Below are positions 4,501-45,400 of a stretch of 64,000 nucleotides of DNA, piece after piece (the stretch's first letter is position 1; the number at the start of each line of letters is the position of its first letter). Made by a program: the position numbers and the translations under genes. This stretch comes from Mustelus asterias (Eukaryota): NCBI RefSeq assembly GCF_964213995.1, contig NC_135804.1, forward strand, positions 42,656,001 through 42,720,000, written 5' to 3'. The notes under the pieces were generated by a model, which was not told the origin of the DNA, made no database searches, and saw only the letters and a program-made list of their open reading frames with translations.

Positions 4501-6118
4501 AAGCAGCAATTTTACTCTATCAGACCTGTGTGCATTCAGATGGTTTATTTATTTTAAAAATCATTTCATTTCAATGATCCTCAGAAATCCCAATACTCCC
4601 TTCCATGCCTCCTCTTTTTACCTGCTGAAAAAGTTCCCCACTAAAGTAGATTTCTTTTCGCACATAGGTGTCATTTTAAATTGCTGGGAATAATTGAAAC
4701 ATTTTCTGATTTTAGTTACCCTCCTTTTTCTTTGGTATCTTGAGGGCCTCCCTAGATTCCTCATTTTCACTCTTGGCATAATGCCCTGGCTCCAGCTGTC
4801 ATTTTTATGGGGTGATATTTTTTGCCTATTGGTATCCCATGTTCTCAAAACTTGGGAGGCAGGGCTTTTATTAGTTTGATGCCTGACACTTGAAAGACCG
4901 AAGGGAGCTGACTATCATATATAATACAGAACAAAGCTGTCATTATGCCGGAAGAACCAGCCAGTTTTCCCTTGAATGCAAGCACGAAACGGCATCCATA
5001 AATAGCAGTGCAAATCTCTACACTTTTGAGTGCAAACTGTGTCTGTAAGGTGCCGACAATAACACAACATCAAAGAGACAAGTTTGATTTGGAGCTCAAC
5101 TAATATGCTTATTTTGACTTTCCTTCAGGGAATGTTGCTGGACTCAGCTAAGTTGCTCAGAGATAAAGAATACTAGATGAAGAAAAAGAAGCTGGAATAC
5201 TTCCCTTCCAGTAGCATAGAAGCTCAGTTCATAAGGAATCAAAGTTGGATTCTATTAAGAGTTTTGTAAGCCTCACTGCCCATTGCCCCAGAAAAATCAA
5301 GGAAAATAAATGATTGTTACTTGGTTAAAAAATGCTTTTGACACCAGTTAGCAAAAATGTGCGAAATTGTACTCAAAATATATTTTTCAAAACAGTTCCA
5401 GAAGTTTAGGTTTGGCACAAATACCTTGGGTTCAGCATCATCAATCACTTCCTTAAGGAGTTTGGGCATTTTACTTTTGTGGGAGTTGACTCACATTGCC
5501 CTTTAAAGTAAAATAGAATCCTCTTACAATCTGGGCCAGATATTTGTGTCTTTCACAATTGTATCCTTTCAATTTTTATGCTGAGCTAACAAATGAGTAA
5601 AAGTTTGTTTTGAATTTTCAGGCTGTTTTGTTCTGCAACATAGTGAGACAGTGAACTATATTGCAGTGAATCTTAACACATCTGTTGTTTCAGCACAACG
5701 TTTATTCACATATTGGTTCAAAATAAAAAGAACTGATCCCATTTTGATGGACTGTTTTCATAACTTAAACAGAACCGTGGCTCTGTATCCTGGACAGAAC
5801 AACGACTGCTGCAGTCTCTTTCTTTCTTTCACATGGCCTGTGCAACATTTAATTTACAAAAGTTCAACAATTGACTTTCTGGTGTCTGTATTCCAATTTG
5901 CATCAATTTATGATGCAGCTCCCTGATTTAGAAATGATTGGGATCTAAATGAGTAATTACGTTCAGGTGGGAATTTAAAGTCAGTTAAGATTGTTTGGGA
6001 GGTTACAGAGTGAGTCCAGCCTGGGTGATATACTTCCATTTCTTGTAAGAAGCTGCAGGTTGGATTAAGAAATGACAAGTTTTTTTTGGTACCTTTCGGT
6101 ATTTTATTCCTAATCAAA

Positions 6119-6310
6119 AAAGCCAATTCAAATCAAGTTCAATCATAGTCCCCACATGAGGGACAAACAAAATCCAAACTGACAAAACAAGACCTTGCAT
6201 CCCACCTTGGGCTCAGTGAAAACAAGGTTCAAGCTGACAGGATGAGGCAATGCACCTCCTCCCGGGCTTGATCTAACACTTCATCTTAGTCAAAAGGCTG
6301 AGATGGCTTT
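6119..6310 (-). other. ~190-nt element with a U2 snRNA-derived 5' head
   Basis: Minus strand 6303-6276 reads tctcagccttttgactaagatgaagtgt versus U2 nt ~7-34 tctcggccttttggctaagatcaagtgt (25/28). It is followed by non-U2 sequence and a gattgaacttgatttgaatt end. Confidence 0.7.
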
Positions 6311-10608: not shown

Positions 10609-11390
10609 CACAGTAAGAAGTTTAACAACACCAGGTTAAAGTCCAACAGGTTTATTTGGTAGCAAAAGCCACACAAGCTTTCGGAGCTCTTAGCCCCTTC
10701 TTCAGGTGAGTGGGAATTTTGTTCACAAACAGAGCTTATAAAGACACAGACTCAATTTACATGAATAATGGTTGGAATGCGAATACTTACAACTAATCAA
10801 GTCTTTAAGAAACAAAACAATGGGAGTGGAGAGAGCATCAAGACAGGCTAAAAAGATGTGTATTGTCTCCAGACAAGACAGCCAGTGAAACTCTGCAGGT
10901 CCACGCAACTGTGGGAGTTACAAATAGTGTGACATGAACCCAATATCCCGGTTGAGGCCGTCCTCGTGTGTGCGGAACTTGGCTATCAGTTTCTGCTCAG
11001 CGACTCTGCGCTGTCGTGTGTCGCGAAGGCCGCCTTGGAGAACGCTTACCCGAATATCAGAGGCCGAATGCCCGTGACCGCTGAAGTGCTCCCCAACAGG
11101 AAGAGAACAGTCTTGCCTGGTGATTGTCGAGCGGTGTTCATTCATCCGTTGTCGCAGCGTCTGCATAGTTTCCCCAATGTACCATGCCTCGGGACATCCT
11201 TTCTTGCAGCGTATCAAGTAGATAACGTTGGCCGAATTGCAAGAGTATGTACCGTGTACCTGGTGGATGGTGTTCTCACGTGAGATGATGGCATCTGTGT
11301 CGATGAACCGGCACGTCTTGCAGAGGTTGCTGTGGCAGGGTTGTGTGGTGTCATGGTCACTGTTCTCCTGAAGCCACTCCTGAAGTCCTG
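10609..11390 (-). mobile_element. 5'-truncated Penelope-like retroelement (Neptune-type linker) with GIY-YIG endonuclease and pLTR
   Basis: ORF 10918..11397 has the Cys linker CHSNLCKTC, then NVIYLIRC...WYIGET...RMNEH...HF..HGH...E..LI......GLN, open to its stop. Flanking direct repeat cactcagcccaaa at 10596-10608 and 11395-11407. Confidence 0.93.
10669..10713 (-). ncRNA. Minimal type I hammerhead ribozyme in the Penelope pLTR
   Basis: Minus strand: cUCAC-CUGAAGA-a-GGGGC-uaaga-GCUCC-GAAA-GCUU-GUGugg. Both catalytic boxes are present, with a 5-bp stem II, CAC/GUG stem I and palindromic AAGCUU stem III. Confidence 0.8.
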
Positions 11391-12356
11391 CTGCCACTCA
11401 GCCCAAATGCAGAGTGGCAGCAGGACCCCCCCATCCTCACCTGATCTCACCCGCAGAGGCCCTGCCCCATCAGGTCCCACCCCTTGGCACTGCCTGCGGC
11501 CTGGTGGGCAGTGCCATGATTCCTCCTCAGCAGTGCCAGGGGACCAGGCTGGCACTGAAAATGGACAGCTATACTAAACCCCGCTGGAGTGAACCACTCC
11601 TGGACGGGGAGGAGAGGCTAGCAGGCCCGGAGAATTCAGTCTCAGGCCCACTAATGCTATTTAAAACATATTTAAATTAGAATCTGCATATGTTATGCAG
11701 CTCCGTGTCGATTTCTGGCATGGAGCTGCAGAAATCCAGCTGCTGGAGACTCGTGGAGGCCGAGGTGCCCAGCTACAAAAGCAATGCAGTGGGCTGAGAG
11801 AATCGATTCCCCAATGATTTTGTAATATTGATTGCCATGATTGACAATTGACAGCCATCAAACATTCTATTACTTTTAATCCAACCTTTTGATTCAACAC
11901 CACTCAGATTAATTAACAGAAATGTCACTGCAAAGTTAAACGTATGATATGTTTTGTGATTATATCATTCCTGAACGCCAAGGTAGAATTCTCCTTTTAT
12001 TTCTAAAGCAGATGCTGATTGTTGAAATAAAGGAGGATGGCAACAATGGGTGCACAGCCATTCCAAATAAGAAACAACTTTTCTTGAGTCTTTCAATTAA
12101 ATCAAGTTTTTGATTGTTTGCCTTGCATTTTGACGTCATTATTTTTCCTTTCACCTGTCATTTTGTGTAATCCACTTTTATTCTTTTTTCACTCATTGCT
12201 TCCCTTGACTAGCAATAAAAACTTAAAAAGGTTCAGTCATTTGATGTCAAATGATCAGTACTGTACATCTTTCTCAATCATTATATTGCCTTGCATTAAC
12301 ATTACATTCCACAGCTTCCAGGATCAAATTTCAAACCTTAAAAGAAATAGACAAAC

Positions 12357-12436
12357 CTGCTTTCTATGTGTTGACAGCTGGCCCGGGACAATACAGTCAT
12401 CACTATCTGTTATTGATTCCTCAACATCATCGTCAA
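12357..12436 (-). CDS. RPGRIP1L: RPGRIP1L exon (80 nt)
   Basis: cttag|TT GAC...CAG|gtttgt; [26 protein letters not shown], matching the SDSDDCIIPG motif. Confidence 0.92.
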
Positions 12437-15400
12437 CTAAGTAAGAAAGAAATTTACTGTGAAAAACAATAGACTGATGATCTTTCAGATGTTTATAGTA
12501 GGAACAGATGGCTATACAATATTGTGATTAGAAATATAATCACCCAGTTAAATAACTTCATATAAAATTATGACTAAAGTAAATGACTGTTACTTTATGA
12601 CTATATTTAAAGAACATGCAAAAACATGGATGGTAGTTAAGTACTTCAGTAAATCACAATAGATTTACAAACCACTTTTAGGTTTTGCATACCTGCCCAA
12701 AAAATGCCTCAGAAGTTAATAGCTGTAGTAGACAGCAGCTTTTATTGCAGCCTATGATACAATTGACTACATAAAGGCAAAAGCCACAATAGTCAACATA
12801 TATGAAGCATACATTAAAACACAATCATAGTAATTACACACACACACAAGAACACACGGTTATCACTTTATCTTGCTCCCGAGAGCAGAAAAATTAACAA
12901 TGAAACAATGAAATTGTTACATAATTTAGAAAAAAAATATTGTACTCTCCCCAAACTTTTCCAGCCAAAAAACCCTTTTGATCTTCCAAGCGTACTGAAA
13001 GAAACCCTGAGAAACATTATATTGAAAAGCTAAACAACAAAAAATAATTATTTTGCACAATAGGTACAGACATACAAAAACAAACTTAAAAGATGTTTCT
13101 ATGTCTTAAATTTATTATAATAAAATGTTCTGTATTCAACAAATACTTCCAAGCCTTACCTTATTTTACCATTTTTAATTTGAGCACACACTCCCTCACC
13201 CATACCCACCCTCACCCACAGCTACCCACACCCTCACCCCCTCAACCTCACCCTCCTCACCCACAGCCATCCACACCGACACCCACCCCTCAATCTCACC
13301 CTCATACTCACTCACACCCCATTCTCACTCACATACTCACATCCTCTCACACTCACCATCTCACCCTTACCGCCATGCTCACTCTCATCCACAGTGTCAC
13401 TCATGCTGTCACCCACACACTCACTTTCACACAATCACTAATGACCACGAAGGGCATGGGGATCATAATTGATCTCCATGTGGGCTTTATCGAATACTAA
13501 CTGCCCTTTTGAGTGAATGAGGGCAGCACGGTGGCACAGTGGTTAGCATTGTTGCCTCACAGCGTCAGAGACCTGGATTCGATTCCCAGCTTGGGCCACT
13601 GTCTGTGTGGAGTTTGCACTTTCGGTGTCTTTGTGGGTTTCCTCCGGGTGCTCCGGGTTCCTCCCATGTCCGAAAGACGTGCTGGTTAGGTTCAGTGGCC
13701 ATACTAAATTCTCCCTCAGTGTACCCGAACAGGCGTCGGAGTGTGGCGACTCGGGGATTTTCACAGTAACTTCATTGCCGTGTTAATGTAAGCCTACTTG
13801 CGACACAAATAAATAAACTTTAAAAACCCCTGGGCAACCTGTCACCGAATTTCTGGTCAGGTTACAAAAATTAGCAGAACATTACAAATTCAGACTGCCT
13901 CTAAACAAAATATCCTGAGACAGATTGGTAAGCGAAGGTAAGTCAATCTCTGTGGGGACTTAAACTAACAGTCAATCGGGTTTCCAAATTTGATATCGCA
14001 TATGCATCCAAGAATCTTATGGATGCCGAGCGGAGGTATTCTCAGATCAAGAAAGAAGGTTTGGTGTGAAAAAGTTCCATCGATATGTCTTTGGCAGATT
14101 TTTCATAATAGTTACTGATCACAAATCCTTATTGGAACTTTGTAAAGAAGATAATTCCCCCTATTGCCTTTGCCCGGAAATAGTATTGGGCCTTATTACT
14201 TGTGGCTTATGAGTACCTTGTAGAGCACCACCCTGGAACCTGGATAGTCAACGTGAATGCACTGAGTCGCCTCCTGTTGCCCACAAGTCTGGCTCCTCTA
14301 CCAGCATTAGAAGAAGTCATGATGGCCCTAAATTCTTGGGAGACTCTGCCAGTGTCCGCAAGGCCTGGCCACAAAAGAATCCAATCTTGTCTAAAGTAAG
14401 GCATATAATCCTACATGGTAGATTCCGAGAAAAACTCTTGGAAGAAATGAAACCCTATTTGACTGAAAAAGACGAGCTCAGTGCTGAGGATGGGATCATT
14501 CTCTGGGGGTCCCAAGTAGTTGTCCCTCATCCAGGAAGACGTCTGATATTAACGGAACTACATAATACCAGCCTAGGGTATCAAAGATGAAAATGCTGGC
14601 TAGGAGCTATGTCTGGTGGCCTGGCTTCGACTCAGACATCACGGACTTGGTGAAGCAGTGCAACCTATGCCAAGAAAATCAAAAACTCTATCCGTCAGCC
14701 TCCCCACATCCATGGGAGTGACCTGGCAGGCTATGGATGTATATGTACGTGGACTTTGCTGGGTCCTTTATGGGTTCCATGTTTTTAATTATGACAGATG
14801 CATACTCCCAAGTGGTTGGAGGTACACCAAATGGGGCCCCACGACCTCTCATACTATGAATTAGGAATTATGACGAAGTTTCTGCATGCACAGAATATCA
14901 AAAGTCCTCGTTTCTGATAATGGCATGCACTTTACTGGCAGTCAATTCCAGAACTTTGTGCTCTCCTATCTGACACGTCTGAACAGCACCCTATCTCCCA
15001 TCATCTAATGGACTGGTGGAACAGATGGTGTAAACTTTAAAAAATGGCATGAGAAAACAACCAGCAGCATCCATGGAGACCACATTGGCATGATTTTTGT
15101 TTGACGATAGGACTACGCTTCACACAACAACAGCAATAACCCCAGCAGAACGTCTAATGGGATAGTGGCTTCATACAAGATTGTACCTACTATTCTCAAA
15201 CCTGGTGCAGTCCCAACAAGAAAACCAGAAAAAGAATCACAATTCTGCAAGGGCAGAAAGAGCGTTTAAAGTAAGTGATTTGGTTCACGTAAGGAACTTC
15301 AGAGTTGGGTCCCTGGGATTATTATGAAGAAAACAGGATCAGTATCTTGCCAGGCTAAAATCCAGGGCAAAATTGTAAAAAAAAATACCTGGACCATCTC

Positions 15401-42400: not shown

Positions 42401-45400
42401 GGAATGCTTATAGTACTTTACTAAGGTTTGAAGACTTATTACAAACAAATAAGGTTGAAACGGTGTATTTTACTCACCAATCAGAACTTCTCTGCCAAAT
42501 ATTCTGCCATTCTTTTCGAGGATTTCATGCATTCTCAACTGGCATGCTGCAATAGTTTCATAGTCTGTGCCATATGCGAGTTGTACTTCTAGTTTTACTG
42601 TGTTTTTCTGTAAATACTGTAGGAAGAAGTCGTCCACTCTGACAACATACTGAGATGTGAAGTCAAATGCTGGCTGCAATCCATGTATTACAGGGGTGGA
42701 CTGGAGTTCATAGTCATAGAATGCATAGGTACAGAAAGTAGCATGTTCTTGCTCACCAAAAACCTTAACGGCTTCAGGAGAGAAGGTCACTTTGCCGATA
42801 TGGATCTCAAATATATTTTCTCCACGCTCTAAATGGACAGTTTCATCAAATTCATCAGCTTCATCATCAGTTGTTATTTCTGGTTTGAATTTGAATTGTT
42901 TGGTGCCATAGGCTATGTCTTTGAGTTGGGCTGAAATAGATGAAAACAGATGCAATTTTTCTATATTTTTCATTAAAGCAACAGAACACAAGGTTTTCTC
43001 TATGTGGAAAACAGATGGTCTGGAATATCAACACCATTGTTATCATTTTTTTAACATGTTCTTCAGTACAGAAGATTTGAAATAGCCCTGCAAATTCTTA
43101 GAATATGAGCTACTCAGTATGCAGGGATTACAACTTGACATTTATTCTGGGATAAATCAGATGAAACACTGCATAGTAAAGGCCTTTTTAACACACTGTA
43201 GGGACATCTTAATTAAAAGTTTCAACAGGAAATTACTAAAATGCTGGTCTGCTAATGATACTGCTTTTAAAAAGGTGGTTAACCCATAGTAGACCCAAAT
43301 GTTGTGGGTCTTAAAATGGAAAAGAAAGATGATTTCTTGAGCAAATATCGTGATACAAAAGGTTCAAGAAACATTGTATAATACATATATGAATTAAAAG
43401 CATAATTATTTAAATGCAACTTGGTGTCACAGAGTTATCAGATTTTATTTTCCATTTTGGGGAAGGTAGTCTCTGTTTGTTATTTCTAGCAAAATTGTAA
43501 GCAGGTTCTTTATATGTGTATTTATAGTTTCATTACAAATATTGTGCAGAAGAAATCTTTCCTCAGGGCAAGTTCCTGAACTTGGCTGCACTGACAGAGG
43601 CTGATGCTATGCAGAAACAAAGCATCTTCCTGTAGCAAAGAAAAATAGTCATCAGGCAACATATGCTGAGAAACTGTGTGAATAATCTACTGTAGATGGA
43701 AGTCCAGGTTATTTATTTATCTCACAGTCAGAGAATAACTAAAAATTGCAAATTAAAAATAAAATACAAGTGTACATAATAAACCACTGCAAAGGAAACA
43801 ATATTATACCCTCATACATTATGTTGACTGACTTGTAAAATACCTTCTGAAATGGCCTAGCAAGCAGTTCAAGAGCAATTAGGAGTGGGCAATAAATGCT
43901 AGTGTAGCCAGTGATGCTCACATCCCATGAATGAATATAAAAAAGTTCTGCTTTACAATTATTTACACAATGCTCTCCTGAACATCACTGTAATACTTTT
44001 TGCAACTGGCATTCATACTTTCTTTTAGCACTGGTTTTCATAAGCAGCAGACTTAAATTACAAAGCACTACAAGTTCATTTTTTTACTTCAGAAACCACA
44101 AATTTGTATAAAAAATATAGAAATAAAGCTAATATATATGTACGAGATTTTAAAACCTAAGTAAATGGAAAATAAAATTGGATATGGTGTAAAACAGGCT
44201 GCCCAATTGCATTGAGCCCATGTTGGACTACCAGCATAAATTAATTGCATCCCAATTCATTCTCTTCTTTTTGGCTTTGGAGCCATGCTGTGTTTTAGGC
44301 TCTGATAATTCACCTAGATTTTTCAAATAAAACAATAGGAAGTCCAACAGAGGGAGGCAGGCAGTAAATCGATCTTGAGAGTGCCGTGACTGTTAATAAA
44401 CTGTTTATGTTGTGGTTTGATGGTTTATATCATCTAAGCTTAAAGCTTTGTTGTTCCCTTGAGAGCATTTATTATATTCGACAGCAGATACTCTGCAGTG
44501 AAAGTGTATAAGGAACTGTAAAGTGTGGTATGATCTTCAACTTTGATATTTATGATACACAATATCTGATACTTAACAATTGTCTCAAGAGATGCTTTTT
44601 CATATTTCTACGTGGAATCCCATTAGTGCTGCAGAAAGAAACTCTGACTATGCGACTGATTTGTTCATATTTTGTTTATAAGCATTATTTTTGCTTGTAA
44701 AAAGATCAGTTTATTTGGCCTGGTATTTGTATTTATAGATGGATGGAGATTTTGAGGCCTCCTGTCTGTCAGAAATAGGGTGAAAGTGCCCTGAAAATGG
44801 GCTTATTGTTCCACTCCTGCCAACTGCCCTGAGCCCAGCTTTGTAAGGCCAGGTGTCTGCTAAAGTTACGCAATAAGCTGTGAATGGTATGTTAATTAGA
44901 TTGTCAAGACATACAGGTGAAGGGCATTGTTTAATTAAACACCTGGAGCACTTATAAAGAAGGAAGGCTATGTTTGCATTGAGATGCCCCTGGAAATGGA
45001 TCATGCAGTATCCAATGGTACTCTCGAGACCTTCTGCAATCGTTGGGCACCACGGGGGTGGGAGTGCTTCATTGGGCACCTAAACATTTTCATTTAATTA
45101 GTTAAGTTTCCTTTGGAGTTTATTTCTGTTCCAGGTCCCCTTTAAAGGGCTATCACTTTAATTTGTCCATTTGTTTAACCGTTCAATCAGAAAAGTAGAA
45201 AGAAGGAAGGCCCCTCTGAGGGGCTGTCAATTAGTTAATCAGCTTTTTAAAGAACATATAAAGATGGATGACTGGGGCACTTGGAAGTAAGTAAAAGGCA
45301 GATATGCGAAATGATGCAATTTGCAAATAAACTGATCAGCAAGACAAAGATTTGCGTCTAGTTTCACACGTCCCCACCTGGCTTGGGATTCAATTAAAAT

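Follow-up and report, generated by a model that had tools for sequence, protein, structure and literature searches.

Positions 6080..6310 (minus strand) of the window, a 64,000-nt stretch of Mustelus asterias contig NC_135804.1 (42,656,001 to 42,720,000), contain a 5'-truncated copy of a dispersed, A-tailed repeat that is ~395 nt long at full length. This copy is very likely a decayed and truncated member of an A-tailed retroposon family built from pieces of the U1, U4 and U2 snRNAs, one that was likely copied by a Tx1 LINE from a master that may have been U1-promoted. That the repeat forms a retroposon family is nearly certain, given its mosaic build, its fixed 3' end with poly(A), its variable 5' ends, target site duplications (TSDs) in a minority of copies and its dispersal. 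Judged by structural criteria and compared with the published description, the family is SINEU-like, and its origin is likely independent of the SINEU elements of crocodilians. The literature searched, with Repbase, Dfam and most subscription journals outside the search, held no shark snRNA-derived SINE and no U4-containing SINE.

The window copy and its host gene

The window copy corresponds to nt 168-397 of the consensus (90.5% identity over 231 nt) and is the sole full match to the family consensus in the window. It is truncated 7 nt before its U2 module, and the family head is absent from the window. The module covers stem-loop I (U2 nt 7-34) at 6276..6303 (minus strand) and stops at the branch-point recognition region. 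As the original prediction had stated, it matches U2 on the minus strand (6303-6276) at 25/28 positions, here against the native U2 of the same genome. Rfam finds the U2 match of the window copy alone weak (E 0.26). Also as predicted, the U2 octamer is repeated right after the module (AGATCAAG, 6274-6267). This repeat opens hairpin unit A (6225..6274, minus strand), a predicted hairpin with compensatory changes relative to a sister family. Hairpin unit B (6167..6218, minus strand) is a duplicate of unit A, with a self-match of 75%.

The ~140 nt after the octamer had been described as non-U2 sequence. Instead, this body holds a diverged further part of U2. Sequence comparison places U2 nt ~44-106, from the stem-loop II region to a U-rich Sm-like site, at 6122..6187 (minus strand), and the alignment to U2 nt ~41-106 agrees in 48/69 columns, with 0/1000 shuffles reaching its score. 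The element had also been thought to end at a ttga-rich stretch. It runs ~40 nt further, through an AATAAA signal and a terminal GAAA-loop hairpin (6089..6109, minus strand) that are conserved among copies, to a poly(A) tail remnant at 6087-6080 (minus strand). Tail positions 1-2 and 4-8 are A in 36-41 of 44 copies, and position 3 of the family is A or T.

The 7-bp inverted pair that was said to bracket the segment is present (first arm 6304..6310, minus strand; partner 6119-6125), but it is internal in aligned copies and does not mark the ends. One fold predicted for the 3' half pairs the two arms with each other; the one predicted for the full length does not. A MITE or other DNA transposon was considered and rejected, as the element has no terminal inverted repeats and the heptamer pair is internal.

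RPGRIP1L surrounds the copy. Its C2 exon at 42470-43027 (minus strand) was recognized by a PF11618 match and by shark RPGRIP1L, and is 95% identical to the catshark protein, 92% to white shark, 84-87% to rays, 80% to chimaera and at most 76% to bony vertebrates, in agreement with the earlier view that the host is a shark. The nearest exon upstream of the element lies in an open frame at 12327..12527 (minus strand), which is probably RPGRIP1L, judging from similarity and its GT donor; Pfam gave no match for this ~12.4-kb exon frame. The next RPGRIP1L exon was found ~20 kb beyond the window start. Because exons lie on both sides of the copy and RPGRIP1L is on the minus strand, the copy is intronic and sense to the pre-mRNA, as had been proposed. 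The copy is dead and shows no sign of function.

Anatomy of the consensus

Native U1, U4 and U2 genes from the same genome were used as references, with 300 dinucleotide shuffles as the control. The full-length element consists of U1 1-95, U4 23-47, an Sm-like site, U2 7-34, one or two hairpins, U2 44 to ~102, the AATAAA/hairpin end and poly(A), with all snRNA pieces in sense orientation. U1 1-95, from which 11 nt are missing, matches native U1 at 79/95 positions and a U1 variant on contig C26 at 80/95. The U4 piece (nt 23-47; 23/25 against native U4) sits within a new stem, and U2 7-34 matches at 26/28. The 3' U2 piece matches at 34/44 over nt 44-87 and reaches about nt 102-106; over its whole diverged length the consensus agrees in 46/64 columns, a score reached by 0/1000 shuffles. 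Each of U1 1-95, U4 23-47, U2 7-34 and U2 44-87 scores above all 300 shuffles. Two hairpin units of ~54 nt stand where U2 35-43 would be. Matches to U5 and U6 are just 9 nt long, at chance level. The 9-nt match to the U4 Sm site has a p of about 0.33 on its own, so the site is called Sm-like from its position. The linker at consensus nt 81-113 resembles antisense U1 1-30 (24/32) and sense U1 38-61 (19/24) with similar scores, and is predicted to pair with the head under either origin.

The consensus folds with a z-score of -4.5 (100 shuffles) and the head with -5.1, values that are inflated by inherited snRNA hairpins and by the duplication, the reverse strand also scoring -2.5. The prediction puts the 5' arm of U1 into a long hairpin, where it is base-paired and stem-loop II forms the cap. 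U1 stem-loop II binds U1A, and the U4 piece is presumably the Snu13-binding kink-turn. The U4 arms that pair with U6 fall outside nt 23-47, and U2 33-38 pairs with the branch point. The C26 variant (L146, G000:C26:50153221-50153384) is a U1 gene away from the U1 arrays of contig C8, and in the loop of stem-loop I it agrees with the SINE head at one more base than array U1 does.

The element is not a classical Pol III SINE, a candidate that was rejected because its head is U1 and internal T-runs are present. Rfam detected no tRNA, 7SL or 5S inside the element; 5S occurs just as a 5' add-on in 2/83 copies.

Copies, age and distribution

The 192-nt query returned 2,582 candidates from the genome. 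All 40 that were scored cover nearly the whole query, and the 39 besides the window copy are 85-89% identical to it. The search for dispersed copies with a common U2/body junction found many, with TSDs in a minority. Thirty loci were fetched with the window sequence and aligned. Homology extends ~40 nt past the earlier 3' end and, in 25/30, at least 114 nt past the earlier 5' end into U4- and U1-derived sequence, so U2 is not the head. What stood of the original reading as a U2-headed SINE is a dispersed, SINEU-like shark retroposon derived from snRNAs; its head, however, is U1 followed by U4.

The window copy might still belong to a separate family that starts at this point with U2. Its start does lie just 7 nt 5' of the U2 module, and the genome has families with a U2 head and a related core (see below). 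Nonetheless, its 90.5% identity to the U1-headed consensus compares with 158/224 for a sister copy and 63/82 for the third family, the loci retrieved by its own sequence mostly extend much further 5', and only 2 of 86 copies, itself included, start at consensus nt 161-180. A U2-headed start is therefore very improbable.

The set of 86 distinct copies comes from the window query together with head and tail queries (90 loci, 4 duplicates dropped; 29/86 picked by the head query), and its mean identity to the ~395-nt consensus is 90.3%. The 5' ends of 56/86 copies, in a set of which 29 are head-selected, fall within the first 20 nt of the consensus. The exact head 19-mer occurs 160 times in the genome (reversed control, 0) and is intact in 4/56 copies picked by non-head queries, which together lead to an estimate of ~2,000 copies with a wide error. 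Taken in genome order, 28/30 head-motif loci run on into the body; in the remaining two, unrelated sequence breaks up one element, and the other has head and tail only. Copies are dispersed over many contigs, with a fixed 3' end and variable 5' ends.

These observations bear on two further proposals, that the segment is a one-off template-switch chimera or that it is a MITE with the 7-bp inverted pair at its ends. Though the heptamer is there and the window copy has no TSD, the same junctions recur in scores of dispersed copies, and the poly(A) end, the 5' truncations and the internal position of the heptamers leave these proposals a negligible probability. The many copies with identical junctions exclude a one-off event.

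Divergence outside CpG is 6.8%, and transitions reach ~24% per CpG base, in a copy set that leans to the best matches. The 6.8% figure and the CpG decay indicate that the family is old and inactive in this genome. No A-to-G hyper-editing was seen among the copies (A>G 3.2% vs T>C 3.4%) or in the window copy (3 vs 2).

The family is carried by contigs of four organisms, M. asterias itself possibly among them (e.g., X3 record 17 and X14 record 1), and some of these contigs span the head, U4 and U2 modules. In three runs that are presumed to be RNA, the element lies mostly within longer, unlike contigs, a setting that does not bear on a stand-alone transcript. Copies common to several organisms could serve as presence/absence markers in shark phylogeny.

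Variants occur in two parts of the element. One-hairpin forms (L083, L115, L177 and L186) are either an older form or the result of repeated deletions between the two units. Five copies (L015, L016, L019, L022 and L027) differ in the head, in the arm of U1 stem-loop I; these variants possibly arose by re-templating on other U1 variants, as described for SINEU-2.

Target sites and 5' ends

TSDs were scored in 64 uninterrupted copies that reach the tail, after 22 interrupted or short copies were dropped. Scores of at least 8 were found in 9/64 copies vs 1.3% of swapped flank pairs, and scores of at least 7 in 13/64 vs 3%. Most of the 64, including the window copy (TSD score 3), have no detectable TSD. 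There is no target preference among the 64, in which one pair has common 3' flanks; flanks are otherwise unrelated save for a pair carrying 5S.

In the 83 copies that bear a head, agreement with U1 still stands at 0.42-0.54 over nt 1-6 and, further upstream, is down to background level; about half of these copies are without U1 nt 1-6. No 5' extension is common to more than two of the 83. Homology that ends at U1 +1 fits a master RNA that starts there. A full-length U1 end that was added by template switching fits the 5' data too, and we put a master RNA with a U1-type promoter, starting at the first U1 base, slightly short of an even call. Upstream of the 83 copies, no U1 promoter was detected (best score 22 vs 26 for shuffles). 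No family copy lies in ~55 kb around the C8 U1 cluster, and the master locus was not found there; the fetched U1 and U4 gene neighborhoods are likewise free of copies. Among the output listed for 17 weaker genomic U4 matches, none resembles the element beyond the U4 piece.

Two copies carry 5S rRNA-like sequence directly 5' of the U1 head, at L018:1211-1329 (plus strand) and L007:1858-1946 (minus strand). Their Rfam scores are 64.9 and 39.9 bits, respectively, their junctions differ, and a possible TSD surrounds the whole 5S chimera in L018. These caps indicate that template switching, too, can determine where a 5' end lies. A 5S cap would bring with it a Pol III internal promoter.

Sister families and a probable Keno-like Tx1 partner

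A Keno-like Tx1 APE-RT LINE is probably the mobilizing partner of the family. Such a LINE sits in the U2 array of the genome, where U2 sequence from nt 39 onward comes after its poly(A). At L055 (G000:C24:44.81-44.94 Mb), it forms a constant part of an 8,035-bp U2 tandem unit and has been amplified with the array. Its ORF1 encodes ZCCHC3-type RNA-binding domains and a zinc knuckle, and its ORF2 (APE-RT-zinc finger) is split over three open frames. Twenty dispersed Tx1 copies were fetched, and in 4/4 whose 5' end was reached this end is U2-derived. The U2 module of the SINE with the next 8 nt matches the U2-headed Tx1 5' end at 32/36 positions. The GATCAA repeat is present in the Tx1 heads of L055, L220 and L221 and absent from L211 and L222. 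At the 3' end, both Tx1 and SINE finish in a T-run, AATAAAGTA and an A-tail. The comparison of the tail with LINE 3' ends gave a mixed answer: AATAAAGTA is common to Tx1 ends, but the overall similarity is weak, since 45 and 18 of 500 shuffles do as well. The proposed link to U2-targeting Tx1/Keno elements is probable.

A sister SINE family was found alongside Tx1 3' ends (n=22). It has a U2 head, a different tail and a diverged U4-derived stem, and is 67-77% identical to the U1-headed family over the core (L118, L122, L123, L127, L128, L130, L166, L173, L215 and L216). In 4/22 Tx1 loci, the sister element stands directly 3' of the Tx1 end, and in L122 and L123 the two have a common TSD. No Tx1 lies within 1.5 kb at 113 loci of the U1-headed family, which leaves the tandem evidence to the sister family. 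Between the two families, 4/51 predicted pairs are changed on both sides and several on one, and none is broken family-wide; the comparison used 5+5 sequences, so each change counts as a single event between the two families.

A third family is U2-headed, has one hairpin and tracks U2 to about nt 140-154. It is a candidate ancestor of the core. In L181 and L201 (G000:C2:33.496 Mb and C4:58.665 Mb), the poly(A) of the element is followed directly by a third-family copy.

Instead of being an altered U2 gene, the core could be an internally deleted, non-autonomous Keno-like Tx1 that kept the 5' head and the 3' signal and to which U4 and U1 pieces were added later. The 32/36 match of the U2 module and GATCAA repeat to the LINE 5' end, and the shared T-run, AATAAAGTA and A-tail, would be expected of such a derivative. 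However, the match to the LINE ends after 36 nt, whereas the body goes on as U2 44-106 (to ~140-154 in the third family), which is absent from the LINE head. The tail similarity is not significant, and the LINE-head match is internal in the U1-headed family, not at its terminus. We consider this origin unlikely, and an altered U2 gene that was copied by Tx1 remains the preferred reading.

Proposed origin

The core would have begun as a U2 gene copy that gained a hairpin at the Keno insertion site, with the loss of U2 35-43. This altered U2 may then have been cut back to the Sm site and given the new hairpin/AATAAA end. The hairpin unit would have been duplicated, followed by gain of the U4 kink-turn and Sm-like module. 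The head would have been added last, as U1 in this family and as U2 in the sister. A Tx1 reverse transcriptase would have copied the master RNA. Selection on the master may have kept the stem-loops that bind proteins (the U1A loop, the kink-turn, U2 stem-loop I and the Sm-like tracts, going by their generally known roles), while it would have lost or hidden the arms for pairing with pre-mRNA or U6. Such a disarmed RNA would fold like an snRNA without poisoning splicing.

A broader scheme extends these steps, and we regard it as speculative and on balance doubtful. In sharks, retroposons that mimic snRNPs and are made by Pol II would have radiated independently, assembled from U1, U4 and U2 modules, with masters that borrowed snRNA promoters (U1 here). 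The U1A, Snu13/kink-turn and Sm sites would be under structural selection, all arms for pairing with pre-mRNA or U6 would be deleted or hidden, and the RNA would be stabilized and trafficked as a disarmed snRNP to the Tx1 machinery. Since the homology breaks off at U1 +1 and sisters with the same core are U2-headed, the idea of a borrowed promoter can be tested.

The same start at U1 +1, the retained protein-binding loops and the compensatory stem changes could also mean that the copies are processed pseudogenes of a chimeric small RNA gene maintained by the host. Against this, three genome searches yielded no conserved or near-identical locus (best pairwise identities 87-93%), several families with swapped heads fit selfish turnover, and CpG decay, at 24% per CpG base, dominates the substitutions. 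A host gene as the source is quite unlikely compared with the retroposon described above.

Relation to known snRNA-derived elements

SINEU-1, -2 and -3 of crocodilians consist of U1/U2 pieces, are <500 nt long and have a poly(A) tail, according to the accessible text of Kojima 2015 (PMC4494074). SINEU-2 has 5' U1 and 3' U2, and SINEU-3 is an internally deleted U2. That text detects no SINEU outside crocodilians and leaves open how the promoter-less SINEU are transcribed. The shark family has in common with them a U1 head, ~395 nt of non-coding sequence, an A-tail, dispersed copies with common junctions, TSDs in some copies and 5' truncation. Both also have heads that were added or swapped between subfamilies, partial duplications, internal oligo-T, occasional TSDs of ~10 bp and tandem insertions, and for both the proposed partner is a Tx1 with a U1 or U2 piece at its own 5' end, as far as the SINEU side is set out there (PMC4494074). 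In contrast, the U4 kink-turn piece is found in the shark family only: SINEU is described with U1 and U2 pieces only, and the term 'U4 snRNA' has 0 occurrences in the accessible text (PMC4494074). The Mariner-like target preference reported for SINEU in that text was not seen in the shark family (PMC4494074). The accessible parts of PMC7245038, PMC5381603, PMC5786205 and PMC5499810 name no shark snRNA-derived SINE. The shark family extends snRNA-derived SINEs beyond crocodilians and makes U4 a third donor RNA.

Keno (Tx1 clade) and Utopia are described as LINEs that target U2 in the accessible part of Kojima and Jurka 2015 (PMC4640811). The shark element resembles Keno in that its U2 part is broken across the Keno-like insertion site of the genome (U2 nt 39 onward) and in that its U2 module matches the U2-derived 5' end of the Keno-like element. 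Unlike Keno, it is non-coding and dispersed, and it is not inside U2 genes at the loci examined. Template-switch chimeras of snRNA and LINE, and tailless snRNA retropseudogenes, are one-off events as presented in the accessible text of PMC4494074. They share with the shark family the addition of small RNAs at the 5' end during reverse transcription, seen here in the two 5S-capped copies, but in the shark family the internal junctions are fixed and amplification proceeded from masters.

Another retroelement in the window

An open frame at 10918-11397 (minus strand) of the window encodes a GIY-YIG domain (Pfam E 2.6e-05). It is probably the end of a Penelope-like retroelement within RPGRIP1L.
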